A stretch of DNA of 53,148 bases, filler included, from Jimgerdemannia flammicorona (taxonomy: Eukaryota), in NCBI GenBank assembly GCA_003990765.1. It is 2 parts of 2 records of this genome, joined end to end, with 100 filler letters (N's around TTAATTAATTAA, not from the genome) between each part and the next. Parts side by side here need not be neighbours in the genome. Positions count along the whole stretch, not along the records: positions 1 to 26,526 come from RBNJ01000720.1; 1 more part is not named here. The stretch is one strand, 5' to 3'. Shown here in pieces: positions 2,857 through 26,626 of the stretch. A program made the position numbers and the translations under genes. The notes below the pieces were generated by a model that was not told where the DNA came from, did not search any database, and saw nothing but the letters and a program-made list of their open reading frames with translations. The number at the start of each line of letters is the position of its first letter. Within the stretch, counting starts at the first letter, position 1.

Positions 2857-2869
2857 TTAGCCCCCACTG
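2857..2869 (-). promoter_or_regulatory. Polypurine-tract-like sequence
   Basis: Minus strand CAGTGGGGGCTAA immediately before the 3' LTR. Confidence 0.55.
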
Positions 2870-2895
2870 AAGGGTAGTCTGTCTCAGACTATTCT

Positions 2896-3411
2896 TCAGT
2901 CATCATCCCAATAAGTATAGGCTGCTTCTGTATCTATACCTGTTCCATCATCTTCATTGTCTGTACTGGGGTTACTCCATTCTATGGGCTCTTCTTCTTC
3001 TTCAGGGAATAGGATTTCGACGGAGTTGATAATACTCAGGTAGATAATAGGATTCATTCCTTGAATATCATTCAGAGAGAATTGTGCCTGTGTCAGGGCT
3101 GTGACATTTCGTTTGTAGATAGTGTATAGTCTGTCTGCGGCAGTAGTGTCTCTTCTGGTCAGACCTGTGATATTCCTGATATAGGTCTGTTCTGGGGCCG
3201 AAAGGTTCTGCAATTGTTCACTGATTGCATAATAGGCCTGCAATTGGTGGACCTGTAGTAGGCGTCTGGCCAACGTGAGATTTTCTTGATAGGCTTGGAT
3301 CCTTTGAAGGGGGCTTCCATTGGCTTGACTGAATTGGGGTAGAGGGACAGATAGGGCTTGGAAGGAGCTGAGGACCAATGTCTGGAGGTGCTGATCAATC
3401 CTTTGGCTCAT
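2896..3411 (-). CDS. Accessory 3' ORF of the Ty3 element (171 aa, acidic C-terminus, unknown function)
   Basis: Open frame MSQRIDQHLQ...YTYWDDD between integrase and PPT; its ATG overlaps the pol stop (ATGA at 3411-3408). Confidence 0.7.
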   Translation of the reverse strand: MSQRIDQHLQTLVLSSFQALSVPLPQFSQANGSPLQRIQAYQENLTLARRLLQVHQLQAYYAISEQLQNLSAPEQTYIRNITGLTRRDTTAADRLYTIYKRNVTALTQAQFSLNDIQGMNPIIYLSIINSVEILFPEEEEEPIEWSNPSTDNEDDGTGIDTEAAYTYWDDD

Positions 3412-6400
3412 GATGTAGAGGGGAAATATAGTTTGAGGTGATTGATGTGTACTGGTGTTCTCAGGGTTCATCCATCCATACTTCTTAAATAGATGCTGGT
3501 TCCTCTGATGTTGTGTACAAGGTAAGGTCCTTCCCATTTCGGTTCCAGTTTAGCAGCAAAGTTTGTCTCAATCATACTTCTCCAAACTAGGACTTGATCT
3601 CCAATCTTGATCTCCTGATCCTTCTGTTTTTGGTTATAGTACTTCTTTTGTCTTTCCTGGGCTTTCTTAATCTGTCCTTGGGCTTGATTTCGTAACTGTT
3701 CTGCCTTCTTCAGGAGGTCTCCGAGATTCTCATGGTCAGCAGTTCTGGTTTTCTTAGCAAACATCATTTTGAATAGCTTTTGTTTGGTGGATGTGGCAGG
3801 GGTATTCCGAATTTCCCATAGGATCTCAGGTAAGCAGAGGTCCCAATTAGTAGGGTTGACTTAGGTAAGTCCTTTCTTGATGGTCTGGTTCATTCTTTCT
3901 GTCATGCCATTGGTCTGGGGGTGGTATGATGTGGTCCTTTTGAGGTGGATCTTGTGAATTCAGGCATAGCTTGTGATTATGTTATTGATGAATTCTGTGC
4001 CTCGGTCAGAGATGAGTTCTTCTGGAGGTCCATATCTGAGTGTGAGTCCATGGAGGAGGTCTACAATGGTTAAGGCATCTGCAATTTCCATTGGGAAAGC
4101 CTCAGGCCACTTGGTCAGATGTTCTACAAATACAAGAATGTATTTGTTTCTTCTTGGTGTAACTGGTAGAGGTCTAATTATGTCTACCCCCCATCTTTGA
4201 AGGATGTGAGTGGGTGGGGGAATTGGTTGCAGAGGAGCTTGATAGTTCTTCTTTCCTTGGTACTTCTGGCAGATGTCACATTTCTGGATGATGTCCCAAA
4301 CTTGAGTTCTGAGGTGGGGCCAATGTTGATGTTGTTTTCGAATCCTGTCTTCTATGCTTGTCTGTCCTTGGTGGGCTTTCTGATATTCTTTTTGGATAAG
4401 ATCTTCTTGTACTTTGATAGTCTGAGGAGCTTCTTTTAGGGTGTGGTTCCTTGGGACACCCTTCCTCTGATTCATTGGGGCTGGTGGAAAAGTACATCAA
4501 TATTGTTGTGGGCTTTCCCTGCTTTGTGAATGATGGTGATTTTGTAATCCTAAAGGATAAGGATCCAGCAGGCTAGAATTCCAGCAGGTTCCTTGTGGTT
4601 GAATAACCATTTAAGGGCTACATGGTCTGTGATCAGGGTGAACCTTTTTCTGATTAGATAATGCTTGAACAGGGTGATCACCCATATGACTGCAAGGCAT
4701 TCCAGTTTGGTGCTACCATAGTTCATCTGCTGCTGGTTGGTAGCCCTGCTTGCATAAGCTATCACATGGTGCTGTTGGTCAGGTCCTTCTTGGGCTAGAA
4801 CTGCTCCTAGGCCATCTTTAGAAGCATCTGTATACAAGATGAATGGCTTCTGTAGATTGGGGTACACAAGGATTGGTGCTGTAGTCATACAGTTCTTGAG
4901 TTCTCTGAAGGCTTTTTCCTGTGATTCTGTCCATTTGAACGGTACTCCTTTCTTGAGAAGGGTTTGGATTGGGGTGGCGATTTGGGCAAAGTCTTTGATA
5001 AACCTTCTGTAGTAAGATACTAGTATCAAGAATGATAGTGTTTCCTTTGGAGTCTTGGGTACTGGCCAATTGTTGATCTTCTCGGGTTTCTTTGGATCTG
5101 TATGAGTTCCTTCTTTTGAGACCATGAATCCAAGGAATTCGAGTTTCTGTTTTCCAAAGTAGCATTTCTTTGCATTCAGTCTCAAGTGATTCTTGCAGGT
5201 GAGCTTGAAGAATTCCTCTAGGTGGTGTAGGTGTTCTTCGAAATTTGCTGAATAGATATTGGAATCATCCATGTATACAATCAGACAGTGGTGGATTAAG
5301 GGGGCATAGACTGAATTCATCATCCTCTGGAAGGTGGGGGGTGCATTGCAAAGTCCAAAGGGCATTCAGAGGTATTCAAACAGTTTTCCTAGAGCAAGGA
5401 AGGCTGTCTTTTGAATGTCCTTGGGGTCCATGGGAATCTCATGGAATCCCATGAAGAGGTCCATACTGCTGAAGTATCTGGCATCTTGTAACTGGTCTAA
5501 AAGGTCATCGATTCTGGGCAAAGGATAAGTATCCTTTTCAGTGACTGAGTTGAGTTTTCTGTAATCCACGCAGAGTCTCCATCCTCCTTTCTTTGGTACA
5601 ATAAGTATAGGGCTGGCCCAGGGGCTGGTAGAGGGTCAGATGACTCCATTGTCTAAGAGTTCTTGAATATGCTCCTTTTCAAATGTTTTCAAGTAGTGGG
5701 GTATTCTATAGGGTTTCTGCCAGATAGGTGTTGCAGTATGGCAGGTTGCCATAATCGGTGGTGAAGATATCTTGATATTTGTTGAGAAGTTCTACTAGTT
5801 GTTGCTGTTATTGAGGTGTCAATTCTTCTCCAATGTTGGTGGAAGGCTTCACTGTCTTCTGGGTCGCAGAGGGGCCTTTCCTTTCTTCTGGGACCTTTTG
5901 CTGTTTCCTGATAGGTTTAGTTCATAAACTTCCCTATGAGTTCAGTTGAGAAAAGGCACCAGATATCCTATGATGGTTCCTTTCGGCAGGATGATGGTCT
6001 CCCAACTTTGGTTGGTTGCTCAGGAGTATACTGGGTTCATTTTGTCAGGGAATGTGTATCCCTCTATGTCCAGGTGTGGGATATCTTCCTTGGGTTCAAA
6101 GAAAAGGTTCCTGGGGTCGGGTGGTGCAAATATTTCGAAGGTGGCCTGTTCTCCAGACTCCAGGATGAGATTCTTGTGTAGTCTGACTGGTTGCTGGTAT
6201 ACTTGCTGGGGAACATTCCTCTTGAGGTGGTTGACTTGAAGGAGATGTACCTCTTCCCTATCTGAACTTCCAAATCCCTTGGCTTGTCTTGTTCCTTCAG
6301 TTAGTTCAGAGACTTCCTGTAACTGTGGGGTCTTGATCTTCATGAAGACTGCTTGGGCAATCTTCTGTCCTCTAATGATTCGGTGCCATTCTGCACTGCT

Positions 6401-9400
6401 GTTGTGTAGGATGACCTTGATTTTGCCTGTATATCCAGGGTCAATGGTTCCTCCTTCTACAGTTATCTCTTGTCTGGTGAGCCCGGACCTTGAGGTCAGT
6501 TGAATATAAGCTCCTTGAGGTGGTTGTATGGCTAATCCAGTTCTGACCATGAAGGTTTTTTCAGGCTTGATAGATTCATCCTCCAGGCTGTGAAGATCAT
6601 ATCCTATGTCCTCTGGGTGGGCTTTGGTCAGGGGTTTGGCCTTAGGGTGTAGCAGGGTATACTGGGCAATATCCTTGCTGAGTTCGGGCTTCCCTAAGGC
6701 TGAAGCTCTACTGGCGGAAAGCCTCCAAGCTCTAAGGTTAAGGTGTGGCCATCTGGCTCCAGTAGAGGGGTCCCGGAGGTAATTGATTCCCCTCCTTCCT
6801 GTAGGGTCAAGGGCTTCCATGAAGTTGGTGGCATCTTCTGCCCATCCTTGGCAGGTTGCATGTCTGATGAGAGTTAGGATATCTTCTTCCAAATCATAGA
6901 TCTTGAGAATTCTTTTTCCGGGCTTCTTTGTCTGGCTTTTTCGAATCTGACTTTTTCAGATCTGGCTTCAGTTATCTCCTTTCTTCAAAGTATATACTGC
7001 AACATCATGACTGAGGTGAATCTTCTGATGTCTGCAGTCTTGGCAATCAGGGTGTCTCCCATGGTTGCAATACCCCATTGCTCGGAAATGGTGTTCCTGG
7101 CTATTTATCTCTTGTTGTCTTGGGAATCAGTACCCATCTTGATCATAGGTTGGGGGAAGGGTAGACAAAGGGTATATTTCTGTTTGGGTAAAGAAGCCTT
7201 ATCCTCTAAATCAACTTTGTAACCTTGTGGTGACTTCTTGAAAGGTAGTAGACTGTGCAAGAGTAGTTGGGGGTTCTGGTCTCTGAGGTCTCTGTCTTTC
7301 TTGTTGATCCAACAGATGATACTAATAGCAGTAGTCTCAGGGAGAGTGGAAGACCATTTGATGTGGACATCTTCCTAGCTGGAAAGCTTTCTCTTGGTGG
7401 GTTTCTTTTTTGGGGATAATGGTGATGGTACTGGGTCCTTCTTCGGTATTTCAAGGATCATTGTCTTCAGGTGGTGTCCAATGAGGATCATCCCAAGGAA
7501 TGAGTTCGGGGACTTCTTCTTCTTCTCTGTGTACTTCTTGTTCAGGGACTTCTTGATCAGAAGTTTCTTCTTCCTTGGATGATTCTTGGCCCCAAATTGC
7601 TTATACTTCTATAGCTTTGATTGCAGGTGTTTCTGGAATATGTCTGCATTTCTTCTTCTTCCTTCTGCACTCCAGGTAGGCTGTGCCAGGTGATTTCCTT
7701 GTTCCCATGATCTTGGAGGAGTGCTCAGGACACTTGTGTCTCTTCAGGCATGTAGGGCATCCTTTGGCTTCTCCTGCAATGGCTCCAATAGTGATAGGAA
7801 TAATGTTTTTGGCCCACACATTGTCTTCTGGTCTGTCATCCACCAGGTTAATTTGGGGACTGAGTCTGGGATCATTTCCATCTTCAGATTCTTCTTCATC
7901 TTCTGTGGTGGATTCTCCACTACTGGCATACTCTTCCTGAATAGTGACCTTCTTTTTCTTCTTCGATTGCTCATAGCTGGTCACCTTAACTCTGTACTTC
8001 TTGCCTCGGTAGTCAAACTTGAGTGCTTGTTGGCTGATATCAACAACTGCATTCATTTCCTTCATCCAGTTGGTACCAAGAATCATGTCATAGGTGATAG
8101 CTTCGGTGACAACAGCTTTGGGGATGGAGAACTGAATGTGTCCAAGGGAGATAGTGATATTTCATACTTCTCCAAGGGGTTGGGTTTGGGCACCATCTGC
8201 TACTATGATGCTGAGGTTGGATGGTCCATCAATGGGCCATTGGAGGGTGTCCAGAAACTGTTTGGCAATGATACAGATAGCTACTTCTGTATCTATGAGG
8301 ATTTTTGCTTTTTGTCCTCCAATGTCTCCATGTAAGTAGGTGCTGATATGTCTTTCAGCTGCTTGAACAGGGATGGAGGCTGGTTCTTGCTGTGGGATTG
8401 GAACTCAGCCAGTGCTAGACCTGGTGGTTCTCAATAGTTTGTTTCAGACTCCAGCTGGTGTCAGTTACAGGAACTGCAGGAGAGAGACTTCCATCTTGGC
8501 TTCTTGAATCTTCTGCCAGGCTTCATTGTAAATATCCCTAGGTATGGTCTTTGGGGTGTACTTCTTCTTAGACTTTGGAGCAGCAGGTTCCTGTTCTTCT
8601 TGTTCCATTTCTTCATCTTCTGGTAGTAGTTCATTTGTCTTAGGCACAAAAGGTGAGGGGGTTTGGGGAGGTGTTTCAACTTGTTCCTCCTCATGTTCTT
8701 CATCTTCTTCTTGAATAATTCTTCTGCTGATGTTCCTGGATGGTCTTCCCACAGGTCTCTTTCTTTTTTCTGCTGGGTAGACTGTCTTTCGGGTGGTAAC
8801 CTTGGTAGGATACAAGTCTAGGTCACTGTAGTCTTCACTGTTGCTTGCTTCCTTGAAATCTTCAACTGGATGGGCTTCAGTCTTCTTGTACTGAGTGTCA
8901 TTCCTTTGGTTTGGTGGTTCTGAGTCTCTTCAGTCACTTCTTTTGTTGTCACATTCAGTGGCATAGTGTCTGAATTGTCCACAGTAGAAGCATTGGACTT
9001 GGGCTCTGTCTCGGACAGAGTACCTTCTTTCTTCTTGCTGGTAATTTCTGTTATCTCTTGGTAGATAACCTTGGCTCCTCTGTGGTGGATACCCTCTGTT
9101 GTTTTGGTAGTCCCAATTTTCGCGTATGGTGAGTTTCTCAATCTACCCAATCAGTTGGTCTAACTTGGAGCTGAGGTCTTGAATTTCACTTCTGTCCTCC
9201 TTTCCTTTCTTGGCTGGCCTTCTTTCTTCAGACCTTTCTTGTCCTTGAAGGAGTCCTTGCAGGGCTTTGACCAGGATATCTTCCTTATCTTCCTTCTTGT
9301 CATGATCACTCCAGGTAGTTCCTTGCCTGACATCAAAGAATCCTTGGACTGTATCTACTTGCTCTTCAGACCTTCTGATGCCTAGGGTGCAGACATGCTG

Positions 9401-10369
9401 GGCAATGTTTGGAGGAATTCCATTCATGAAGGTCATTAGACCTATGATATCTTGGTTGGTGGCATTGAACCTGGCAGAATGCATTCTCTTCTGGATTCTT
9501 ATGAAGAAGGCTCTGGGTGATTCTCCAAGATTCATCTTCATTCCCATGTTAGATTTCTGAGCCTTGTAGCGGGTTTCATTTCCTGTATACTTTTCGATGA
9601 GCCAGTAGACCATGGCCTCATATTCTAGCTTATCAGAGAATGCTGCTTGTATCTGTCTTACCAGTTCCGAATCTGGGTTGTTTGCTGTTCAGTGGAAAAT
9701 TCCTCTAGCTGGTTCTCTAAGCTGGGCTTTGTAGATGGCGATTTTTCTTTCATCTGAGAGGTTTCTCAAGGCTGCACTTCCTTCAATTCCATCAAGGAAT
9801 TCTCTGGGGTCTTCCTCCAGATATTCTGCAAAAGTTGGCAATAAGGTGGCCATTTCGTCATCACTTTCTTCTAATTCTGGTTCAGGTTCAGATTCTGATT
9901 CTGATTCACTTTCTGAACTGTCACTAGAGGCAGGAGTGCTTGGGTATCTTGAAGATGGTGTTCTGGTCCTTGGGTGAGGTGGAATAGGCCTAGGTATTCT
10001 TGTAGGAGCTACTTCTGGTTCTGTAAGAGGTTGTGGTAGGGGTTCTATTGGTGATATTGGTGGGACTAGTGTGGGGTGTCTGGCTGTAAAGTGTTGGGTC
10101 TGGGTAATAAAGTCTTCTAGCTCTTGTGCAAGTTCTCCAAAAACTCTAGTGGGGCTGTCTGTATTGTCTGGTTGGGGATTTTGGGCTGTACTGCCTCCTG
10201 CTTCTGGTTGGGATCCTTCTGATGCTGGGTAGTTGGCAAGTCTTGAGGTGATTACTTCTCTTCCTGTCCAAATGCTAGTGATGACTGGTTCTTCTGTAGT
10301 GGCAGATGTTGGTGTGGTATCAAATGTATCCAGTTTGACTGTGGGTTCTTGTGAGCTGAAAAGTCACAT
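3408..10369 (-). pseudogene. gag-pol polyprotein with many premature stops
   Basis: CCHC knuckle CFYCGQFRHYATEC (~8952-8995); aspartic protease ILIDTEVA (~8280-8305); RT DYRKLN, YPLPRIDDLLD, MPFGLCNAPPTFQR, YMDD; RNase H YTDAS, LITDH; integrase H-H-CxxC, WGVD, SDRGTEF, GPY motif (KWEGPY); final stop at 3408-3410. Confidence 0.95.
6260..6667 (-). CDS. dUTPase domain within retrotransposon pol (between protease and RT)
   Basis: All five trimeric dUTPase motifs in ORF 6020-6892: GYDL, SRSGL, GGTIDPGYTG, KIAQ, RQAKGFGSS. Confidence 0.95.
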
Positions 10370-10382
10370 CGATTTGAAATCT

Positions 10383-10399
10383 TCCCAGTTGAGCCCCCA
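10383..10399 (-). promoter_or_regulatory. Primer-binding site, probably tRNA-Pro
   Basis: Minus strand TGGGGGCTCAACTGGGA, 2 nt after the 5' LTR; resembles the tRNA-Pro PBS TGGGGGCTCGTCCGGGA, allowing for CpG decay. Confidence 0.75.
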
Positions 10400-10401
10400 A
10401 A

Positions 10402-11826
10402 TGTAATGTGCCAGCTCAATGGAGGCAAATTACAAGGTTGGGGGTTGATGTAGTTTGGCTTGAGCCCCCAGTTACTTTGTCAAAAAGCAACAAAATATTC
10501 TATGATTCCTGAGGTCCTTGGTGTTTAGCAGTATAATAGTCAAAGCTGGATATCTGTGAGCGATTTCCTTATTGGAACTGTTCTCTGGGTGTAGTGGCAA
10601 TTTGTGTACAAATGGGGTTCCTTCTTGGGTCAACTGAGAATGCCACAATAATTTGTGTAGCACAATGATCTCCAAAAGTATGCAATTTCTGGGTGATGAT
10701 CTTGTGTAGCATGATGGTCTGGTAATTTAGCAGTTCTCCTTCTTGAGTGGCAGGTGATCTTCATGTAGCACAGTAGATTTCTTATGCAGGACATTCTGAT
10801 AATTGGGCAGATTACTCGATCTGGCTCACTGGGAATTGTATGGCGTGAGTTCTTCTGTAACAGGCTCACTGGGAATAGCAAATAGCTTGGATGTCGTGGG
10901 AGGTGGATAATTCAATAACTCAGGTAACTTGGATGATGCAGATTCTTCCTGAATCGGTGGAGTTCTTCTGGGAATATGGTAGCTTAACTGGGAATTAACT
11001 TGGGTGGTGCGGATTCTTCTAAATTGGCAGCTTCAACTGGGAATATGGCAGATAACTTAGAAATGGCAGGTGACGTGGATTCTTTCTGAATCAGTGGGCT
11101 CTAACTGGGAAATGGGATGGTGGTTTGGAAAGGGTCTCTTGGCAAAGTTGTGTTAAGGACTGGCTTCGTTTATATGATGAATTACTACGAAGTTGTGTCA
11201 GAAACTAACTTGAGCAAGGTGGCTTTCTTGGGAAGGTAGAGGATAGGGTTCTTCAGGCTTATCTGGCAAGCATACCAATAGTGCAGCTTATTCCTTTAAG
11301 TGGCAGGTTCTTCAAAAGGTGGCGAAGTTCTTCTTGAACTTAGGCGGCAATTCTTCAGGCTTATCTGGCAAGCGAACCAATAGTTCCAAAGGTGGCAAAG
11401 TTCTTCCTCAAACTTGGCGGCAAAATCAGCTTTGTATCAGAAAGTGGACTGGAGTAAAAAGGGGACCAATGCTCAATCTTTAGAGGCTTCTTTGGTATTT
11501 GTATTTTGGACTGAGGTTTTTATTCACTCTCATCTCTGGGGTAATTTATACAAGTTGGTTACTATCTGGTTACTATGTGGCTAACTATAGATCTGCTACT
11601 TATGGCAGATATACAGAGTCTGTACGGTATACAGGACCTGTACAGTGTACAGAGTCTGTATGGTGTACAGAGTCTGTACAGGTAAACAGACCTTTTCTGG
11701 TATGTCTGGCTATTTATACAGTTTTCCTCGGCAATAGTTGCTGGTTACTAAGCTGTGTGTTCATGTCATCTTGTTCATGTCATCTGGTTAAGATATGATT
11801 TAGGTGGTACCTCTTGGCTTGTCACA
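10402..11826 (-). repeat. 5' LTR
   Basis: TG...CA termini; direct repeat of 1432-2856; differences are mostly transitions at CpG. Confidence 0.96.
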
Positions 11827-12247
11827 ATATATATAATATCTATAATTGATATATGTAAATATCTATATTTTATTAATTTATTATTATTATTATATAGACT
11901 TTCATAGATTATATAATTAGTACAGAATACTCAAAAACCAAACTTGTGTCTTATTATTATACTTATTATCTAAGCTATTCAGTATAGTATCTTTAAAGTA
12001 TTTACAACTCTAAAAGATCTATTTTAGTCCAAATATACTATTATTGAGTAGGCACCAGAGATGCTGAATATTGTGATATTTCAGAATAATATTATAAATA
12101 GTTCTTTATCAATTATCATACAAAAGGTTGGATATTCAGATATATATAATAATATATATAGTATACTAATCTGTATTTTGTACTTAAGTTCTAATATAAA
12201 TATTATTTATCTAGATATATTTATAGTATATATATTTTGCCAAAGTA

Positions 12248-13844
12248 CAGTAAGGGACAAAAGTGATCAAATGTTATTTTATTATTATTATTTTATTTTA
12301 TTGTAGCTTAAATATGAGTTCTATTAAATTCATATTATAACCAATAATTTAGTAACTCTAGAGCTTCCAAAAAATATTAGTTTTAATTTATTTTATTAAT
12401 CTTAAATAAAAGTTTATGACATTTAAAGTAGGATTACTGATTTGATCACTTTTGTCCCCCACCCTTATTTGGACTATCTTCAGGCAGTTATTTCAGATAT
12501 AATTATCCTATTACTATAGAATTTTTCTCTATTATTCTTATCAATATACTCTATCAATTTCAATCTTCAAAATATTTTAAAAATAATGAGAAGGCTCCCC
12601 ATTGATATTTATAACTACATAATTAACGTATTATATTCTGGCATATCTATATACAAGGTTTCCAAGGAGATGGATGTTAGTTATAGATGTATGGCATAAA
12701 TAAGAAAGGAGGATTGTACCGACATCATCATTGAATCAAAAAACAGCCACCCATATATACTTATCACTTTCATTATAAGTAGTTTGCCAAATTACCTCTG
12801 GTAAGGCTGAAACTATCTTCAAGGTTGTCAAACTGATGAAAGAAGTTGGGAAAACCATCAGCACTAAGACTATATATAGAATGCTGAAAAAAGTGAGTAT
12901 GAAAGCCATCATCAAGCAAAAAAAACTGAGATTGCTCACATACCATAAGAAGGCTCAGTACAAATTTGCCCAAAAATATAAGAATTGGACAGTCAATGAT
13001 TAGAAACATGTCATTTTCTCAGATGAGACCAAGATCAACCACTTTGGCTCTGATGGATGCCTATGGGTGTGGAAGAAATCCAGACCTGGTACACTACTTG
13101 AAGACTGCCATGTGACTAGTACCACTAAATTCAGAGACAGTTCAGTGATGATTTGAGGCTATATGTTATTTACCAGTATTGGATATATATGAAAAATAAA
13201 TAGTAGAATGGACAGCAAACTCTACAAAAGTATCCGTGATGATAAATTGAAGAAATCCATCAAATATTTTAAGATATAGCTGAAAAAAAATTTATTCCAG
13301 CAAGATAATGATTCAAAGTATATGTTCAGTTTGGCATAGAAATGATTCAAAAGCCATTCAATCTACTTGTTAGACTGGCTGGCACAATCACCTGACCTAA
13401 ATCCTATAGAATATCTGTAGTGGTATATTAAAAGGAGGCTCAATATATATGAGGAAGCACTAAAGGGAATGCAGGTGCTTTGGGAGTGGGTGGAAGATGA
13501 GTAGAATGAGGTTCCTGATAATGTTTGTGCTGGATTGGTAGAGAGTATGCTGAGATATATTGCAGCAGTATTCAAAGCTAAGGGTGGTTATGTAAAATAT
13601 TAAAGTTATCAATAAAATAGATATGATAATGCATCAAGGACAAAAGTGATCAAATTAGTGATCCTACTTTAAATGCTATAAACTTTTATTTATAATTAAT
13701 AAAATAAATTAAAACTAATATTTTTTGGAAGCTCTAGGGTTACTAAATTATTGGTTATAATATGAATTTAATAGAACTCATATTTAAGCTATAATAAAAT
13801 GAAATAATAATAAGATAACATTTGATCACTTTTGTCCCTCACTA
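12248..13844 (+). mobile_element. Tc1/mariner (Tc1, DD34E-type) DNA transposon, degenerate
   Basis: ~210-bp TIRs starting CAGTAAGGGACAAAAGTGATCAAAT; TA duplications at 12246-12247 and 13845-13846; transposase remnant inside. Confidence 0.95.
12586..13603 (+). pseudogene. Tc1 transposase with stops and frameshifts
   Basis: Motifs VIFSDETKIN, FQQDND, DWLAQSPDLNPIE and terminal AKGGYVKY*. Confidence 0.93.
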
Positions 13845-15719
13845 TATAGCTGATGCAATTGTCAAGAAGAATAGAGATACTAAAGCAAAGCAAGTATTAT
13901 ATCACTCATTCAAATCAGAGATATTATATATATACTATATATGACTGATAAATATTAATATAGTAGAAGCAATACTAGATAATAATATCTTAGCACAATA
14001 TTAAGATAATGTGATTACATTTAGACCTCTACTATTATAGATCCCAATACTATGAATCAATCCAAACTAACTTAACAGAGACTTCAGGACATAGATACTG
14101 ATATTATTAAATAGAGAGTAGATGCAAATATATTAAAAAAGAAACTAAATCTAAATAGAATACAAAAATGGCACTATCTAATAAGATTTTATTTTACAAA
14201 GCATTTAATACATCAGTATCTCCTAATATATATATATACTTATTTTATTTATTAAATCAGAAAAACATCTGATTTACTCAAACAATACAAAAAATTATTA
14301 TGGTTTATAAAAGTATATACTCAAACTCAAATGTTATGAGATATCTAATTTAATAACTACTGTAGAGCTTGAGCAACAAGCTAAGATAATTTAAATAGAA
14401 ACTGAACTGATCTATATTGATGTATCATCTACTAAGATTAATGATATTATTCAATCAGTTTCTGATATACAAAAAAGACAGGCCTTAGTCAGATATGCTA
14501 TAACTTGTTTGATAGAAATATAAAGAACCTATATATTATATTCTAATTTAAACTGCTATTATATAATATATATCTATAGATATTCTTGTACTAAACCTAG
14601 AGGGTATATTTCAACAGTAGTAACAGAAGATATCAAAAACACTATATAGACAAAAGATGATGACAAAATATTATAGAAGATATATATACTATATAGCTAT
14701 TAGTAAGAGAAGATAGCATCAATGATTCCAGGAAAAGAGAGTTATAACTATCAATATAGATGAGATAATATATTAGTTTTATTTATTAATAAGACATAAT
14801 AGATATTTGATAAAGATATACTATTATATCAATATTACTATAAACATAGATATAGTTAGATAACAATTTCAGCTAATATCTCTAATAGAACTCCAGATAT
14901 ATAGTATAGATAAATAACAGTACTCTTAAAAAGAAATCATATTATAGCAGAAACAAAATACAAGTAAATGTCTATATAACAGTATTATAAAAAATAATAG
15001 TCTACTATATACAATAATCTCTTCTCTATACTTATTTATAAATATATATTATTTAAAATATTAGACAAATTCACTATATTATAATACTTATTATATTCTA
15101 GATATATCTGTGTGATACTAGTATATATGAGTTATATTTCTTTACTATTTTATATAAGTATACTCACTCTATTAAAGTTAGGACCATAGTGTCAAATATA
15201 GCAAAATATTGTATTATAATAGTTATTTAGATATACTAAAATATATAGTATATTGTATAATACTAAAATTACTATGTTATATAATTAATTATATATAATA
15301 ATGATATTGATGATTATATTCATCAGTATTTAGATCTGTGAATACTCTCAGTATACTACTTGATGACTCAGAGTAGCTTATACCCTCTAGATTATCTAGT
15401 TGATTTTCTATATATTTTAGCTGAATTAAAATTCTTACCATGCTGAAATTCATAGATCTCAAAGTTATAGTGATTTGTATTTTGAATATATTTATATTAT
15501 CATAAATTAGATCTACCTCTATATCTGTATAGTGATATTTAGAGGTTGTGTATTCCAGGGCTCATATTAGACTTATTGATACTCTTCAATTCTTACATTT
15601 CATCAGCTATATACTGTAGTTGGTTTTTGTTTAAATCTTGGTCTATAAATATATATTATAACAGTGATCCCAGAATAATAATATCAATACAGGAGACAGT
15701 CTTTCCTTACAAGCCACCA

Positions 15720-16596: not shown

Positions 16597-16665
16597 TTTT
16601 TTTTATTTTATTTTTTTTTTTATTTTTATTTTTATTTTTATTTTTATTTTTTTTTATTTTTTTTT
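16597..16665 (-). repeat. A-rich T(A)n tail at the terminus of the Penelope-like array
   Basis: Runs of 4-11 A separated by single T on the minus strand, abutting element sequence ...CTCGTTTTATAAT at 16666. Confidence 0.75.
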
Positions 16666-17395
16666 ATTATAAAACGAGTAGATAATAGTGGAAGAGTTTA
16701 GAGCAAGATGTGATACTGTTACGGCAGATATGAAGGTTGGCGGTAAAAGGTCAAATAGTTATAAAAAGCTTATGTGAATTTTTACAACGGAACAAAAGTG
16801 AGCAGAATAAAGTGTTTTCCGAAGCAAGGTGCAATAGATCTGCAACCCGCTCATGGCACCGCAATTTACGATGGTCTTTATTCAAAAATAAAAACAAAGT
16901 TCGGATAAACAAAGACATGAATCTAACCCCGGAATTTCAGAATCAGACAGGTACATAAGTACCCGGACCTTGCCCCGATCCAAACAAAGGTCTGAATCGG
17001 GCTTTGTTGATCTACACATGTGACGGGCTATTAAAAACCCGATATAGTAACAATTGGGAAAAGGTACCGGTCACATGATCTAGTGTTACACAAACAGTAA
17101 ACAATGCCAAAAACGGAACTAGACCAATGACACGTCACGTGTTGTCATGTGATTGTCACTTATAGGTTTAAAAACCTAAAAATCGTCGGCACCCAAAGGC
17201 GCAGGCATCAGGCCTAGAGCCTCATGATCGGAGCAGAGTAGAGCCTCGGCACCGGAGCGAGCGAAGTGAGCGGAGGTAGACAGGCATCACGGAGTGTAGG
17301 TATGCAGGCGTCAGGCCTAGAGCCTCGCGCCAGAGGTTGTCCGGTGATTTTTTGCATTTTTAAACATTGTACGGCACGTACAAGTGGTGCGGCCT

Positions 17396-19408
17396 TCAAG
17401 GAGGACTTATAGCAAAGCTGGTGTTTGAGACGGCGTTAAGAATGGTTAAACCATTCTTCCGGGCGACGATGGGTCGTCGGGTGGTCGCAGGGAAACCAAA
17501 ACGAAGCAAAGCAGTACGTAGAGTCTTGTCGGGCTGTTGATGTAGCCATCGGGCCATGTCGTATTGGATGACAAGTAGCGGGGGAGGAAAAGCGGAGTGG
17601 GGGATGGGGGGGTGGGAAATAAGGGGAGGAGTGAGAAGTGAAGTTCGGACCTCAAGCCAATCAACCAAACTCAATTGAGCGGTTACAACATCAACAGGGT
17701 ATCCTTTCCTGTGAACCAGGAACTCGGCCAAAGACTGACACTCATCAAGCCAATCATGGCGCGATGAGCAGAGTAGCGATAGGCGGCGGGCTTCATTCAC
17801 AATGCATAGATGGAGCGTCTTCCTAGGATGATTGCTCAACCAGTCGACAAACTGCGTACTATGTGGGAATTTTGCAAAGCGGCCTGTGTGGAATAGTGCG
17901 ACTTGGATTTCCAGGTCTAAGTAATGGCACGGTCCGGTGGACAAGACTTCCCATTCGATACGATGGTGCAGAGGGTACACGGCAGCAAAGATCGAGGCCA
18001 AGTCCATGATCGCGGGCACAAAGACAATAAGATCATCAATGTACCGGTGGAACTTTAGCCCGGCAGCGATGGCTTGGCTAAGCAGATGATCGGGCGTTTG
18101 CAAGGCATGCAACTCATGAGCAAAACCAACAAGATTGGCAAGATCCGGAGCACAATTGGTGCCTATAGCAATACCAGTCACAGAGCAGAAGGAACCGATG
18201 GCAGATGTAAACGTCGTATGAGTCATGACTATGCGGACAAGGCCGAGAATGGCTTCAAGCGGCAAAGAGCCAGGGGGGAAGGCCACCGTTGACAAAAAGG
18301 TGAGGCAGTCGATGCATTCATCTAATGTGATCCTGGTGTAGAAGGCGGCGAAATCTCCAGTAGTGACGTATAAACAATCTGACACATCAAGGTAATCTGA
18401 ATGAACCAATTGAAGCAGTTCGAGTGTATCACGTAGAGGTGAATAATGAGAGTAACCCACATTAAGGCGCAGATGGGCCGACCACAGATGGAGAAAGTGA
18501 GATAGGAAACGCGAAATCTCGGTCATGGGAGAGTTAAACGCACCAACGATAGGGCGCCATGCCATGCGAGCCCCTTTGTATACCTTGGGCATAGCGTGAA
18601 ACATGGGTAGCTTACAATCGATGGGCTCCATGAGGTGTTCCCAAATCGGCATACAATTATGATCACCAATGCAGAACTTGAGTAGACTAAGAAGGTCTAG
18701 CCTCACTGATTCCTTAATGTTATCAATTGTAGAGGGATCATTCACATATGCAGGATCGTGAAGGAGAGACCAAAGACCGTCAAGATATAGAGCACGCGGT
18801 ATAACAGCGAACCCCAGATTCTTATCGGTAAGACAGACAGTGAAGTCATCATGAGTATGGACGCCTTTAAGAAGGCGGTGGAACTTCTTCGATACAAGCA
18901 CGCCGGACACATTCGTCATGGGTCAGACAGCTTGATTTAAAGCGGCACTCATATAGAGCATAATTTGCATATTTTCCATACAGTGTGGCGGTCGCCATTT
19001 TGATGGCACCCAGGCGGAGATCTCCGGGATGTCGTCAGGATTACCCATAGAGGTCCAGAAGGTAGCAAGGTCGAGACGCCGTTGGAATGATGACAACGAA
19101 ATTGGGTTGATGGTACTGTTCATCGATGCTGACCCGGGGAGAATGAACTTAGGGCCAAAGTTCAGCATATACGTGAGCTCGGGGGTAAGCCAAGGCAGAG
19201 GTATATTGGTAACAAAGCCCTCCTCGGTAAACATCCGAAACCGAGGGACGAAAAACTGACTTAAGCGAGAACCGGGAAGAGAAGACATGAAGGCAAAATC
19301 CTCAATTGGTGTCGAGGCCGCTACCCCACGTGGAATGGGGACATCGGGGCCAAACCACGCTACTGGGAAGTCGTATAAGACTTCCAGGCTGGGGACCTCT
19401 AGTTTTTT
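17396..19408 (-). pseudogene. Penelope-like reverse transcriptase (one internal stop at 18923-18925), no GIY-YIG domain
   Basis: PLE RT motifs LNFGPKF, TDKNLG, HAMPKVYK, RPIV, TGDFAAFYTRI, GIAIGTNCAPDLANL, RYIDD, YLDL, SNHP, RPIVARKN; the frame ends shortly after the last of these. Confidence 0.92.
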
Positions 19409-20559
19409 TATGCTAGAGGGCAGGTATCGCTGGCATTATGCCAGACGACATAATGTTTAGCGGCAGTATACTTGTTGCACTGCAGCACAAACGCCCTGGT
19501 GGCACTCTTAGATGAGTGGCTCGAAGTCGACGAGCAGCTGGTCCCGGTAGAAGCGGGGGAAACAGATGGGGAAGGTGAAGCCTTACGTGCTCGCTTGACC
19601 CCTTTTACAGAACCCTCCGTCAAAGCGGGGGCTAGGGGGCAAGGACCCCGGTGGGCCTTTGTAGGCACACCAAGACATCTAGAACAACTACAGCAGTTCG
19701 GCGCAATGGAGGCTGAGGTCACCTTCACCTCCTTCACCTTTCCCGCAGCCTCTGCAGACACGGCGGTAGAGGGTAGGGGAGTGGGGACGCTCTTTTTCGG
19801 TCGGGCGGAACCAGTAGCAGCAGAAGCAAATGTGCATTTCGCATCCGGAGTAACGATCTCGGGGCGCTTCCCAAGCTCCTCAACTACGGCTTTGCGGGCG
19901 GCGGCGGAAATCCCATCTTGCAGGGAGGAGGACGCAGGGGCTGTCGGGCGGACAGTGGTGGCAGCAGCTTTGGCAGCAGCGGCAGCGGCAAGACGGTGAG
20001 ACTGACGCATGACAACGTCAAAACCACAGAACAAGAACAAGTTTGTCTTGGCCCGGTCGGTGGCAGCAAGGGTAGCAATATTCTTAGCAACCCCTAGAGT
20101 GATATCGACTGATACACCAAAAAATTGATGGGCATCGGAAGAACCACCCATGGCCTTGTCGATTTTAGCATACTGGTCCTTAGCATGCTGGGCGGTAGCT
20201 TCTTGATCAGAAACGGCAGCCTCAATCACGGCAGTGGCATGGCGCTTAGCTTCTGCCGAAGCAGTAGCAAGGGCGATGTCACACTGCTCCTCAGGTAGGA
20301 GGGCGATAGTAGCAGCTACCTTCTTGGAAGGAGTAAACCTCCAATCGGCAACTTGGGCCCGAAGGAAATCGGCATGGCGTTCTTTTGTGGTGGCGACCTC
20401 AAGGGCAGAGAGCACTTCGGTGCAAGCAGCACAGAAGTAGAGAGGGACCTCGGCAGATGTGGCAGCAATATAGGCTGCAAGGTTGTCGAACTCCGCCAAA
20501 TCGGTGAAGGAAGCTTTGGGGATGGCAGCATCGCCATCTACATTCATATTATCTGTCAT
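19408..20559 (-). CDS. PLE ORF1 (Ala-rich helical N-terminus, Pro/Ser/Lys-rich linker, two Cys/His motifs)
   Basis: 383-aa ORF; homologous copies at 21774-22934 and from 25664. Confidence 0.85.
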   Translation of the reverse strand: MTDNMNVDGDAAIPKASFTDLAEFDNLAAYIAATSAEVPLYFCAACTEVLSALEVATTKERHADFLRAQVADWRFTPSKKVAATIALLPEEQCDIALATASAEAKRHATAVIEAAVSDQEATAQHAKDQYAKIDKAMGGSSDAHQFFGVSVDITLGVAKNIATLAATDRAKTNLFLFCGFDVVMRQSHRLAAAAAAKAAATTVRPTAPASSSLQDGISAAARKAVVEELGKRPEIVTPDAKCTFASAATGSARPKKSVPTPLPSTAVSAEAAGKVKEVKVTSASIAPNCCSCSRCLGVPTKAHRGPCPLAPALTEGSVKGVKRARKASPSPSVSPASTGTSCSSTSSHSSKSATRAFVLQCNKYTAAKHYVVWHNASDTCPLA

Positions 20560-21773
20560 GTTGTGTATTATAAAACAAGTAGATAATAGCAGAAGAGTTT
20601 AGAGCGAGATGTGATACTGTTATGGCAGATATGAAGATCGGCAGTAAAAGATCAAATAGTTATAAAAAGCTTATGTGAATTTTCACGACGGAACAAAAGT
20701 GAGCGGAATAAAGTGTTTTCTGAAGCAAGGTGCAATAGATCTGCAACCTGCTCACGGCACTGCAATTTGCAATAGTCTTTATTCAAAAATAAAAACAAAG
20801 TTCAGATAAACAAAGACACGGATCTAACCCCGGAATTCCGGAATCAGACAGATGCATAAGTACCCAGACCTTGCCCCGATCCAAACAAAGGTCTGAATCG
20901 GGCTTCATCGATCTACACACATGACGGGCCATTAAAAACCCGATATAGTAACAATTGGGAAAAGGTACCGGTCACATGATCTAGTGTTACACAAACAGTA
21001 AACAATGCCAAAAATGGAACTAGACCAATGACACATCACATGTTGTCACATGATTGTCACTTATAGGTTTAAAAACCTAAAAATCATTGGCACCTGAAGG
21101 CACAGGCGTCAGGCCTAGAGCCTCGCGACTGGAGTGGAGTAGAGCCTTGGCACCGGAGCAAGCGAAGTGAGCGGAGGTAGACAGGCATCACGGAGCATAG
21201 GTACACAGGTGTCAGGCCTAGAGCCTCACGCTGGAGGTTGTCCAGCGATTTTTCGTGTTTTTAAACCTATAAGTGACAATCACGTGACAACACGTGACGT
21301 GTCATTGGTCTAGTTCCGTTTTTGGCATTGTTTACTGTTTGTGTAACACTAGATCACGTGACCGGTACCTTTTCCTGATTGTTACTATATCGGGTTTTTA
21401 ATGGCCCGTCACATGTATAGATCGATGAAGCCCGATTCAGATCTTTGTTTGGATCGGGGCAAGGTCCGGGTACTTATGCACCAGTCCGATTCTGGAATTC
21501 CGGGGTTAGATCCGTGTCTTTGTTTATCTGAACTTTGTTTTTATTTTTGAATAAAGACCATCACAAATTGCGGTGCCATGAGCGGGTTGCAGATCTATTG
21601 CACCTTGCTTCGGAAAATACTTTATTCCGCTTGCTTTTGTTCCGTCGTGAAAATTCACATAAGCTTTTTATAACTATTTGACCTTTTACCGCCGACCTTC
21701 ATATCCGCCATAACAGTATCACATTTCGCTCTAAACTCTTCTACTATTATCTACTCGTTTTATAATACACAAC

Positions 21774-22934
21774 ATAACAGATAATATAAATGTAGATGGC
21801 GATACTGCCGTCCCCAAAGCTTCCTTCACCGATTTGGCGGAGTTTGACAACCTTATAGCCTATATTGCTGCCGCGTCTGCCGAGGTCCCTCTCTACTTCC
21901 GTGCTGCTTGCACCGGAGTGCTCTCTGCCCTTGAGGTCGCCGCTGCGAAAGAACGCCGTGCCGATTTCCTTTGGGCCCAAGTTGCTGATTGGAGGTTTAC
22001 TCCTTCCAAGAAGATAGCTGCTACCATCGCCCTCCTACCTGAGGAGCAGCGTGATGCCACCCTTGCTACTGCTTCAGCAGAAGCTAAGCACCGCACCACT
22101 GCCGCGATTGAGGCTGCCGTTTCTGATCAAGAAGCTGCCACCCAGCATGCTAAGGACTAGCGTGCTAAAATCGACAAGGCCATGGGTGGTTCTTTGGATG
22201 CCCATCAATTTTTTGGTGTATCGGTCGATATCACTTTAGGGGTTGCTAAGAATATCGCTACCCTTGCTGCCACCGACCAGGCCAAGACAAACTTGTTCTT
22301 GTTCCGTGGTTTTGACGTTATCATGCATCAGTCTCACCGTCTTGCCGCCGCCGCCACTGCCAAAGCCGCTGCCACCGCCGTCCGCCTGACAGCCCCTGCG
22401 TCCTCCTCCCTGTAAGATGGGATTTCCGCCGCTACCCACAAAGCCGTAGTTGAGGAGCTTGGGAAGCGCCCCGAGATCGTTACTCTGGGTGCGAAACACA
22501 CATTTGCTTCTGCTGCCGCTGGTTCCGCCCGACCAAAAAAGAGCATCCCCACCCCCCTACCCTCTACCGCCGCGCCTGCGGGGGCTGCGGGAAAGGTGAA
22601 GGAGGTGAAGGTGACCTTGGCCTCCATTGCGCCGAACTGCCATAGTTGTTCTGGACGTCTTGGTATGCCTACGAAGGCCCACTGGGGTCCTTGCCCCCTA
22701 GCCCCTGCTTTGACGGAGGGTTCTGTAAAAGGGGTCAAGTGAGCGCGTAAGGCTTCACCTTCCCTGTCCGTTTCCTCCGCTTCTACCGGGACCAGCCGCT
22801 CATCGACTTCGAGCTGCTCGTCTAAGAGCGCCACCAGGGCGTTTGTACCGCAGTGCAACAAGTGTACTGCCGCTAAACGTCATGTTGTCTGGTATAATGC
22901 CGGCGATGCCTGCCCTCTAGCATCAAAAAACTAG
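21774..22934 (+). pseudogene. PLE ORF1, copy 2
   Basis: In-frame fragments 21834-22160 and 22182-22415 match ORF 19408-20559; ends CPLASKN*. Confidence 0.85.
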
Positions 22935-22967
22935 AGGTCCCCAGCCCGGAAGTCTTATATGACTTCC
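22925..22967 (+). promoter_or_regulatory. Putative -1 programmed ribosomal frameshift signal (A_AAA_AAC plus downstream hairpin)
   Basis: TCA AAA AAC TAG ends ORF1; the RT is in the -1 frame and open from the heptamer; GGAAGTC-ttatat-GACTTCC stem at 22948-22967. Confidence 0.75.
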
Positions 22968-24937
22968 CAGCAGCGTGGTTTGGCCCCGATGTCTCCATTC
23001 CATGTAGGGTAGCGGCCTCGACACCAATTGAGGATTTTGCCTTCGTGTCTTCTCTTCCCGGTTCTCGCTTAAGTCAGTTTTTCGTCTCTCGGTTTCGGAT
23101 GTTTACCGAGAAGGGCTTTGTTACCGATATACCTCCGCCTTGGCTTACCCCCGAGCTCACGTATATGCTGAACTTTGGCCCTAAGTTCGTTCTCCCCGGG
23201 TCGGCATCGATGAACAGTACCATCGACCCGATTTCGTTGTCATTGTTCCAACGGCGTCTCGACCTTGCCACCTTCTGGACCTCTATGGGTAATCCTGATG
23301 ACGTCCCGGAGATCTCCGCCTGGGTGCCATCAAAATGGCAACCACCGCACTGTATGGAAAATATGTAAATTATGCTCCATATGAGTGCCGCTTTGAATCA
23401 AGCTGTCCAACCCACGACGAATGTATCCGGCGCGCTTGTACCGAAGAAGTTCCGCTGCCTTCTTAAAGGCATCCGTACTCATGATGACTTCACTGTCTGT
23501 CTTATCGACAAGAATCTGGGGTTCGCCATTATACCGCGTGCTCTATATCTTGATGGTCTTCGGTCTCTCCTTCACAATCCTGTATACATGAATGATCCCT
23601 CTACGATTGATAATGTTAAGGAATCAGTGAGGCTAGACCTTCTAGGTCTACTCGAGTTCTGCATCGGTGATCATAATTGTATGCCGATTTGGGAACACCT
23701 CATGGAGCTCATCGATTGTAAGCTACCCATGTTTCACGCTCTGCCCAAGGTATACAAAGGGGCTCGCGTGGCATGGCGCCCTATCGTTGGTGCGTTTAAC
23801 TCTCCCACAACTGAGATTTCGCGTTTCCTATCTCGCTTTCTCCGTCTGTGGTCGGCCCATCTGCACCTTAATGTGGGTTACTCTTGTTATTCACCTCTAC
23901 GTGATATGCTCGAACTGCTTCAATTGGTTCGTTTGGATTACCTTGATGTGTCAGATTGTTTATATGTCGCTACTGGAGATTTCGCTGCCTTCTACACCAG
24001 GATCACATTAGATGAGTGCATCGACTGCCTCACCTTTTTGTTGATGGTGGCCTTTCCCTCTAGCTCTTTGCCACTTGAAGCCATTCTCAGCCTTGTCCAC
24101 ATAGTCATGACTCGTATGACGTTTATATCTGCCATCAGTTCCTTCTGCTCTATGACTAGTATTGCTATGGGCACCAATTGTACTCCGGATCTTGCCAATC
24201 TTGTTGGTTTTGCTCATGAGTTGCGTGCCTTGCAAATGCCCAATCATCTGCTTAGCTGAGCTGTCGCTGCTGGGCTAAAGTTCCGCCGGTACATTGATGA
24301 TCTTATTGTCTTTGTGCCCGCGATCATGGACTTGGCCTCAATCTTTGCTGCCGTGTACCCTCTGCACCATCGTATCGAATGGGAAGTCTTGTCCGCCGGA
24401 CCATGCTATTACTTAGACCTGGAAATCCGAGTCACACCATTCTGCACAGGCCGCTTTGCAAAATTCCTGCGTAGTACGCAGTTTGTCGACTGGTTGAGCA
24501 ATCATCCTAGGAAGACGCTCCATCTATGCATTGTGAATGAAGCCCGCTACCTATCGCTACTCTGCTCATCGCGCCGTGATTGGCTTGATGAGTGTCGGTC
24601 TTTGGCCGAGTTTCTGATTTACAGGAAAGGATACTCTGTTGATGTTATAACTGCTCAATTGAGTTTGGTTGATTGGCTTGAGGTCCGAACTTCACTTCTC
24701 ACCCCTCCCCTTATTTCCCACCCCCCCATCCCTCACTTCGCTTTTCCTCCCCCGCTACTTGTCGTCCAATACGACACGGCCTGATGGCTATATCAACAGC
24801 CCAACAAGACTCTACGTACCGCTTTGCTTCATTTTGGTTTCCCTGCGACTGCCCGACGACCCATCATCGCCTGGAAGAACAGTTTTACCATTCTTAACGC
24901 CGTCTCAAACACCAGCTTCGCTATAAGTCCTCCTTGA
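22925..24937 (+). pseudogene. PLE reverse transcriptase, copy 2
   Basis: In-frame fragments 23045-23368, 23372-24259 and 24314-24784 match the minus-strand RT. Confidence 0.9.
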
Positions 24938-25167
24938 AGGCCGCACCGCTTGTACGTACCGTGCGATGTTTAAAAATGTGAAAAATCGCCGAACAACCTC
25001 TGGCGCGAGGCTCTAGGCCTGACACCTGCGTACCTATGCTCTGTGACACCTGTCTACCTCCGCTCGCTTCGCTCGCTCTGGTGCCAAGGCTCTACTCCAC
25101 TCTGGTCGCGAGGCTCTAGGCCTGATGCCTGCGCCTTTGGGTGCCAACGATTTTTAGGTTTTTAAAC

Positions 25168-26514
25168 CTATAAGTGACAATCACGTGACAACACGTGACG
25201 TATCATTGGTCTAGTTCCGTTTTTGGCATTGTTTACTGTTTGTGTAACACTAGATCACGTGACCGGTACCTTTTCCCGATTGTTACTATATCGGGTTTTT
25301 AATGGCCCGTCACATGTGTAGATTGACGAAGCCCGATTCAGACCTTTGTTTGGATTGGGGCAAGGTCCAGGTACTTATGCACCTGTCTGATTCCGGAATT
25401 CTGGGGTTAGATCCATGTCTTTGTTTATCCGAACTTTGTTTTTATTTTTGAATAAAGACCATCGCAAATTGCGGTGCCATGAGTGGGTTGCAGATCTATT
25501 GCACCTTGCTTCGGAAAACACTTTATTTCGCTCGCTTTTGTTCCATCGTGAAAATTCACATAACTATTTGACCTTTTACTGCCAATCTTCATATCCGCTG
25601 TAACAGTATCACATCTTGCTCTAAACTCTTCCGCTATTATCTACTCGTTTTATAATACACAACATGACAGATAATATAAATGTAGATGGCAATGCTGCCA
25701 TCCCCAAAGCTTCCTTCACCGATTTGGCAGAGTTCGACAACCTTGCAGCCTATATTGCTGCCACGTCTGCCGAGGTCCCTCTCTACTTCCGTGCTGCTTG
25801 CACCGGAGTGCTCTCTGCCCTTGAGGTCACCGCCATGAAAGAATGCCATGCCGATTTCCTTCAGGCCCAAGTTGCCGATTGGAGGTTTACTCCTTCCAAG
25901 AAGGTAGCTGCTACCATCGCCCTCCTACCTGAGGAGCAGCATGACGCCGCCCTTGCTACTGCTTCGGCAGAAGCTAAGCGCCGCGCCACTGCCATGATTG
26001 AGGCTGTCGTTTCTGATCAAGAAACTGCCGCCCAGCATGCTAAGGACCAGCGTGCTAAAATCGACAAGGCCATGGGTGGTTCTTCTGATGCCCATCAATT
26101 TTTTGGTGTATTGGTCGATATTACTCTAGGGGTTGTTAAGAATATCGCTACCCTTGCTGCCACCGACCGGGCCAAGACAAACTTGTTCTTGTTCTGTGGT
26201 TTTGATGTTGTCGTGCGTCAGTCTTGCCATCTCGCCGCCGCCGCCGCTGCCAAAGCCACTGCCGCCACCGTCCACCCGACAGCCCCTGTGTCCTCCTCCC
26301 TGCAAGATGGGATTTCCGCCGCCACCCGCAAAGCCGTAGTTGAGAAGCTTGGGAAGCGCCCTGAGATCGTTACTCCAGGTGTGAAATGCACATTTGCTTC
26401 TGCTGCCGCTGGTTCCACCCGACCGAAAAAGAGCGTCCCCACCCCCCTACCCTCTACCGCCGCGCCTGCGGGGGCTGCGGGAAAGGTGAAGGAGGTGAAG
26501 GTGACCTCGGCCTC
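25168..26514 (+). mobile_element. Third PLE unit in head-to-tail tandem, truncated at the contig end (ORF1 from 25664)
   Basis: Repeat of 21267 onward offset by 3901 bp; ORF1 MTDNINVDG... open up to the poly-T and gap. Confidence 0.88.
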
Positions 26515-26526
26515 TTTTTTTTTTTT

Positions 26527-26626
26527 NNNNNNNNNNNNNNNNNNNNNNNNNNNNNNNNNNNNNNNNNNNNTTAATTAATTAANNNNNNNNNNNNNNNNNN
26601 NNNNNNNNNNNNNNNNNNNNNNNNNN
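26527..26626. other. Artificial contig spacer
   Basis: 44 N + TTAATTAATTAA (stops in all six frames) + 44 N = 100 bp. Confidence 0.95.

Follow-up and report, generated by a model that had tools for sequence, protein, structure and literature searches.

How does a Penelope-like element (PLE) without a nuclease of its own enter chromosome interiors, and how do its copies come to lie head to head? How PLEs make direct-plus-inverted insertions, and how nuclease-less PLEs obtain primers away from telomeres, are named as open questions in PMC8557442, PMC3846280 and PMC11167929. Both questions are raised by a locus of Jimgerdemannia flammicorona (assembly GCA_003990765.1) within a stretch of 53,148 nucleotides, filler included, which was analysed as a whole and is referred to here as the window. 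Positions 16597-26526 almost certainly represent a decayed insertion of an autonomous nuclease-less PLE family, consisting of two head-to-head arms and a tandem third copy. An earlier note on this DNA had the element end at 17396 and 20559, and it continues past both coordinates. The three copies that the note counted were recovered by self-comparison of the window (arm A on the minus strand, arm B on the plus strand and tandem copy C), but the palindromic unit had been overlooked, as A and B together form a 9-kb head-to-head palindrome with the arm joint inside an inverted repeat. Pseudo-LTRs in tandem and inverted arrangement, a feature of PLE membership, are present. The features of the window are as follows.

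80-634, plus strand: 184-codon open frame with no Pfam match, truncated by the Gypsy element
1444-11829, minus strand: decayed Gypsy-type LTR element with dUTPase, RT, RNase H and integrase; LTRs of 1416 bp, 91.5% alike
12246-13846: MITE-like stretch, 212-bp terminal inverted repeats around AT-rich sequence, 1.6 kb
16597..16664, minus strand: A-rich tail at the outer 3' end of arm A, its A runs broken by single T
16665..17365, minus strand: 3' pseudo-LTR of arm A, a 181-nt leader (17185-17365) and a 520-nt repeat ending at TTTTATAATA
17396..19402, minus strand: arm A RT frame, counting 668 codons from the slip site; encodes a PLE-type RT with thumb and no nuclease
19312..19398, minus strand: stem-loops 3' of the slip site, the strongest stem at about 19362-19389
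19402..19408, minus strand: heptamer A AAA AAC, a putative site of -1 slippage, immediately followed by the TAG stop of ORF1 (19399-19401)
19399..20559, minus strand: ORF1 of arm A, with Ala-rich helices, a low-complexity linker and two Cys/His knuckles; premature TAA at 19408-19410
20566..21266, minus strand: 5' pseudo-LTR of arm A, full leader included
21067..21266, no strand: palindrome centre; a GC-rich loop of 157 nt flanked by the halves of an imperfect inverted repeat of ~21 bp (21067-21087 / 21245-21266)
21247..25657, plus strand: arm B, with repeat 21247-21767, ORF1 21774-22934, slip site 22925-22931, RT 22931-24937 and 3' pseudo-LTR 24968-25657
24968..26514, plus strand: tandem copy C, whose 5' pseudo-LTR is the 3' pseudo-LTR of B; its ORF1 starts at 25664, and the copy is interrupted by a T run where the contig ends
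26527-26626: artificial linker (N44, TTAATTAATTAA, N44)

A PLE-type RT had been placed on arm A, and this assignment was borne out by a Pfam RVT_1 match (E 8.9e-6), by the PLE motifs DKN, PKxHK, RPI, GxAMGT, YIDD and thumb SxHP (motifs 1-7 and the PLE thumb are all present) and by a telomerase-like fold. In the AlphaFold model (pLDDT 80.9) telomerase RT accounted for the two best Foldseek matches, and a sequence search of the PDB gave no relevant match. The RT ends 216 aa after YIDD, compared to about 350-370 aa in most nuclease-bearing relatives. Copy A had been credited with only two disabling substitutions, which understates its damage. In addition to two stops, the TAA in ORF1 and an internal TGA at 18923-18925 in the RT frame, two strongly conserved RT positions are altered in copy A, a histidine that does not vary among 60 aligned RTs and a methionine with at least 90% conservation. 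Arm B has a changed start codon and 3 internal stops in ORF1 and 3 internal stops in RT. Natural open frames exist for both proteins, and the open RT frames found in other copies are 679 codons long and all terminate at the same stop. Variants inherited by both arms gave an omega of 0.11 for RT and 0.17-0.24 for ORF1, demonstrating purifying selection, with 1.0-2.1 in the other frames; differences between arms gave about 0.6.

Relatives of this RT are few. Among 1.84 billion representatives 4 proteins reached E 1e-30, and the sole named RT relative was from Racocetra fulgida. A second nuclease-less PLE family was found in the same genome (loci L144, L147-L153 and L159-L173), with an RT 41% identical and frames of 696 codons. 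Phylogeny was assessed with a careful tree of 39 chosen rows and a fast tree of 145 rows. In these trees of unnamed proteins the two families and the relatives P0001, P0005, P0006 and P0007 formed one 6-row group (100/100), separate from the groups with a nuclease and those with a long single frame. The DNA of P0001 and P0005 was looked for in metagenome contigs and was not found there. The proposal of an undescribed endonuclease-less family was upheld in part: the RT falls in its own group and has no close protein in the collection searched (best match 44%), but the ORF1 plus RT layout is known from Athena and Coprina-1_Alen.

The absence of a GIY-YIG domain at either end of the RT, reported from the sequence earlier, was confirmed with Pfam in 7 frames and with a PLE-type nuclease profile. 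This profile, made from 16 PLE-type nuclease domains, found nothing in the six frames of 41 stretches (best E 1.2). Full-length copies elsewhere also lack GIY-YIG, as their 679-codon natural frames share one stop. Alternatively, the cuts could come from a nuclease concealed within ORF1 or provided in trans, and the element would then work as an ordinary Penelope. The layout equals that of nuclease-bearing PLEs, there are 34 Pfam GIY-YIG matches in the genome, ORF1 has no identified fold (pLDDT 39), and the genome-wide nuclease search comprised just 2 scored candidates. However, PLE RT was contained in none of the 15 GIY-YIG stretches fetched from these 34 matches, the PLE-type nuclease query of the genome returned no nuclease core and only a weak zinc-finger match, and the short duplications are missing, and we consider this explanation quite improbable. 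The GIY-YIG matches were clustered on few contigs (L041-L055, four on C509), had no PLE RT and are possibly organellar intron endonucleases. Rfam and motif scans agreed with the earlier note that a hammerhead core is absent, although a divergent ribozyme could escape such scans. CUGANGA sites in the motif scans were confined to coding frames; the one within the RT frame (30/42 arms) was rejected as a hammerhead, as it had no helix II and was absent from the sister family. Rfam matches to L31-leader and miRNA scored under the gathering thresholds and were also rejected.

ORF1 had been described as a gag-like protein of 383 aa. This length is correct for copy A, from the ATG at 20559 to the TAA at 19408-19410, but unbroken natural copies have 385-386 codons and the natural end lies three codons past the TAA of copy A. 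The label gag-like has its basis in two Cys/His knuckles conserved in both families (C289-C292-H303-C307 and C361-C364-H374-C380) and in long Ala-rich helices at about 21-204 in a low-confidence model (pLDDT 39), but Pfam, homolog and Atlas searches with ORF1 gave no match, to gag or otherwise, and ORF1 has no detectable fold. ORF1 was compared with N-terminal regions from 35 long relatives that lack a nuclease and 10 relatives that carry one; homology was rejected, as the similarity was not above shuffles and the hhalign probability was at most 0.2. An HxxFL motif spotted by eye was unsupported.

ORF1 ends with A AAA AAC TAG and RT follows in the -1 frame. Heptamer and TAG were intact in 41/42 arms, and the 10-mer at the junction was intact in 93% of arms versus medians of 44-71%, better kept than 95-100% of comparable 10-mers. 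Stems 3' of the slip site gave folding z values of -2.5 to -4.0 in all five natural copies folded. The first common Met lies 57 codons downstream of the slip site, and the stretch between has 5 synonymous and 9 non-synonymous changes. Translation across the junction is likely, judged from sequence conservation, because the sister family retains both knuckles, shows the same -1 overlap, there on A AAA AAA, and conserves the motif FPxAWFxPxVPxP, which precedes any Met. With good confidence, one RNA would be translated into ORF1, a predicted helical oligomer and zinc-knuckle RNA-binding protein, and by -1 frameshift into an RT fusion of about 1,054 aa, similar to the 940-1,100 aa of single-frame relatives. 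In one sister-family locus (L159, near 5900) a 2-nt deletion merges ORF1 and RT into a single long frame.

The palindrome is not particular to the window. In a genome search in which 144 of 781 RT candidates were scored, all 20 minus/plus pairs fetched shared its layout, spanning about 9.0 kb around a centre of about 161 bp, and the joint was identical, within the ~21-bp imperfect inverted repeat, in 21/21 pair loci aligned, window included. As the first 20 loci were selected as pairs, full-length palindromes are overstated; among 7 loci picked as single matches 5 had the same joint, 1 was cut and 1 was without the joint. The joint motif had 53 exact matches in the genome on 52 contigs, two of them variant sites and not separate joints, and the 3' leader motif had 70. 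Twenty further junction sides were followed; 6 entered ORF1, 4 ended in an A tail and 10 gave no assignment, indicating that a short or a full arm can lie on either side of the centre. Outwards, the palindrome terminates on both sides in an element 3' end, at one fixed base; tails of at least 7 nt were present at 24/28 ends in 14 loci other than the window. Several tails have (AAAAT)n, (AAT)n or (AT)n repeats that echo the element's own end (window 16597-16664, L025, L032, L035, L036 and L131), which suggests re-alignment during priming. In the sister family the centre has a 27-bp perfect inverted repeat and the inverted arm is mostly short (337 bp), with long arms in L166 and L169; there are no A tails, and copies end inside ORF1. 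The GC-rich centre loops of both families (window 21088-21244; L160 4280-4435) share CTCGCT-rich motifs (CTCRCTTCGCTCG), while outside these loops the non-coding DNA of the two families does not align. In the window (26514-26526), L181, L186 and L193 a T run at a contig end interrupts the copy, in two of the four within the centre loop, as if the tail of another copy had inserted.

The two arms of a locus are each other's closest relatives. At non-CpG sites the nearest sequence was the partner arm for 42/42 arms, and for 41/42 by transversions. Doubleton transversions were shared within a locus in 146 of 158 cases, with 3.9 expected. As this relationship was seen in all 21 loci, each insertion came from one source. 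The extra tandem copies of the window, L116 and L117 are likewise sisters of their own locus; copy C was born with A and B, from which it differs by 0 and 4 transversions as compared to at least 15 from other loci. The three copies of L120 are not each other's nearest by transversions. All four repeats of one locus carry the same private variants, as retroviral LTRs do. Short-read assembly and contigs that often break at tails could point to palindromes created by assembly or amplification, or to arms homogenised later by gene conversion. However, arms differ by 4-17%, mostly by CpG transitions and with more divergence at older loci, which excludes artefact and ongoing conversion; the same joint also recurs in 21/21 loci with unrelated flanks, and a second family repeats the layout. 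We consider this explanation extremely improbable.

The chromosomal position of the family was assessed against the host chromosome ends, which are TTAGGG. The family is not telomeric: all 10 telomere-adjacent 10-kb stretches, taken from the first 100 of the 771 matches listed, were free of it, and neither 20 of its loci nor 15 sister loci contained a double telomere hexamer. The flanks of the loci are unrelated and are often other repeats. To the right of the linker are intron-split fungal-type host genes (UDP-glucose dehydrogenase, ferric reductase, Arf, DHBP synthase and UGGT), and these were dropped as proof of an interstitial site because the linker (26527-26626) joins another contig, so that adjacency to the element is not implied. 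Short target duplications were at background, with at least 4 nt (4-5 nt) in 2/14 loci compared to 8/182 mismatched pairs, and in 0/9 sister-family loci. Long duplications of about 710 and 311 bp were found at 2/13 loci, and in both cases the tail-poor end showed a short A/T-rich microhomology. Empty sites were tested for five loci; two showed deletions of 4 bp and about 175 bp, and the right flank was unmatched at the other 3.

We modestly favour a mechanism in which reverse transcription is primed from each end of a host DNA break, giving two cDNAs that are joined through the short inverted repeat. The element, without its own cutter, would use the 3' ends of existing breaks in chromosome interiors, and each of the two break ends would prime at the same fixed site, the A-tailed repeat end, on template RNA with presumed ends that would come for both from one source locus. 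RT could re-enter the repeat by strand transfer, by which every repeat of a new insertion would be copied from one template and arms of about 0.15, 1.15 or 2.15 units would result. Pairing of the two cDNAs would then occur through the short inverted repeat that surrounds the leader, after which host repair would fill in, and the break would be sealed with a deletion, or with a long duplication where its ends were staggered. Two-ended priming is favoured by the fixed outward 3' ends, the unequal tails, the short and long arms on either side of the centre, in particular short arms that are tailed, and the irregular footprints. Such footprints resemble those of nuclease-independent L1 insertions (PMC1920257). 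Of the tail-poor ends, one arm type had 4 and the other had 2, a split that, like the asymmetry of the four repeats, speaks neither for nor against fold-back. Counted against two-ended priming is that only 2 of the 5 empty sites tested could be reconstructed.

The main rival is fold-back, in which priming occurs at one end and the cDNA, after stopping at the leader, folds onto itself via the inverted repeat and serves as its own template, giving a hairpin that is then opened to a palindrome; a self-priming idea of this kind has been proposed for nuclease-bearing PLEs (PMC3846280). The joint lies exactly inside an inverted repeat of the right geometry, and the sister family has a perfect one at its centre. 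Fold-back also explains more simply why arms are sisters in 21/21 loci, as two-ended priming needs two RNAs from one source and fold-back needs no such addition. However, in the window, C18411 and C634 the arm that a fold-back must make exceeds its template in length, so that extra template jumps are needed, as they also are where an arm is short yet tailed (L174); the short arm of C634 ends at a contig edge, which weakens that case. In addition, no inverted copy of host flank was found at any of 13 loci. Taken with these points fold-back appears unlikely, and less so than any other rival.

A linear double-stranded palindromic DNA could instead be made free of the target, in an ORF1 particle, and then be captured at breaks by end joining. 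The fixed ends, the LTR-like identity of the repeats, the irregular footprints and the gag-pol-like combination of a knuckled ORF1 and a frameshift are consistent with such a route. It is improbable in our assessment, since the two ends differ in tail length and make-up, no primer-binding site, RNase H or capsid fold was found in the element, and the long duplications are better suited to staggered target priming.

The family was compared with known systems. Athena elements of bdelloids (Terminons) are likewise nuclease-less with a separate ORF1, which in Athena is coiled-coil and can be joined by frameshift and pseudoknot (PMC8557442), whereas they attach to telomeres via reverse-complement telomeric repeats beside a hammerhead and form head-to-tail arrays (PMC6431247); the fungal family has no telomeric repeats and no hammerhead, and is interstitial and head to head. 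Coprina shares a fungal host, the lack of a nuclease and an RT that ends after the thumb region, and Coprina-1_Alen also has two ORFs and direct terminal repeats (PMC13159263). Coprina differs in lying at chromosome ends between telomeric repeats, in being few in number and in having hammerheads (PMC13159263, PMC4209133). The RT described here groups apart from the long single-ORF nuclease-less proteins, which we infer to be Coprina. A 2013 statement has fungal nuclease-less PLEs without a direct/inverted repeat layout (PMC3846280); contrary to it, this layout is present in the family described here.

Penelope/Poseidon, Neptune, Naiad and Chlamys elements (for example Pen2a_Av and PAc) likewise have pseudo-LTRs and partial tandems and are interstitial, and nuclease-bearing PLEs can also carry a neighbouring copy in inverted orientation, with a palindrome where the two meet (PMC3846280, PMC8557442); the short inverted arm of the sister family matches Pen2a_Av. 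The GIY-YIG domain, C- or N-terminal, that marks these clades as well as Nematis and Hydra is absent from the family, as is an 8-10 bp duplication. The family further differs in its separate ORF1, its A-rich tails and its fixed joint, beyond which the inverted copy often has full length. PLE-X of Chara and Selaginella and MjPLE01 of shrimp are nuclease-less and non-telomeric as well, and in Chara PLE-X is spread genome-wide (PMC8557442). Compared by description, PLE-X differs in having hammerheads and a CxC motif, in being Chlamys-derived, and in hosts and layout. Outside PLEs, endonuclease-independent L1 insertions also show deletions and rearranged flanks at DNA breaks (PMC1920257), and in L1 twin priming two independently extended ends are joined (PMC11702581). 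Break priming is a side route for L1, whereas here it is apparently the sole route, and the insertions have two full 3' ends and a joint of fixed position.

The element had also been put forward as a candidate for a new system, and it is better regarded as a variant within PLE. Each feature alone has precedent, as Athena has ORF1 and frameshift, Coprina is fungal with two ORFs, PLE-X is non-telomeric and nuclease-bearing PLEs have inverted copies. No description of the combination in a fungus was found in the literature searched. What is truly new is the unit of insertion, interstitial and head to head. We speculate, with rather little confidence, that an undescribed PLE lineage of early-diverging fungi lives wholly by healing breaks from both ends by means of a telomerase-like RT, its simple-repeat tails made by telomerase-like re-alignment at the end of its own RNA and its fragile 9-kb palindromes supplying new breaks, as the copies interrupted by T runs would illustrate. 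The family is a natural test case for how nuclease-less PLEs insert. It offers an inverted layout without nuclease or hammerhead at about 50 junctions in one fungal genome, where the arms date each insertion and the target footprints can be read, and it bears on telomerase-like RT action at breaks.
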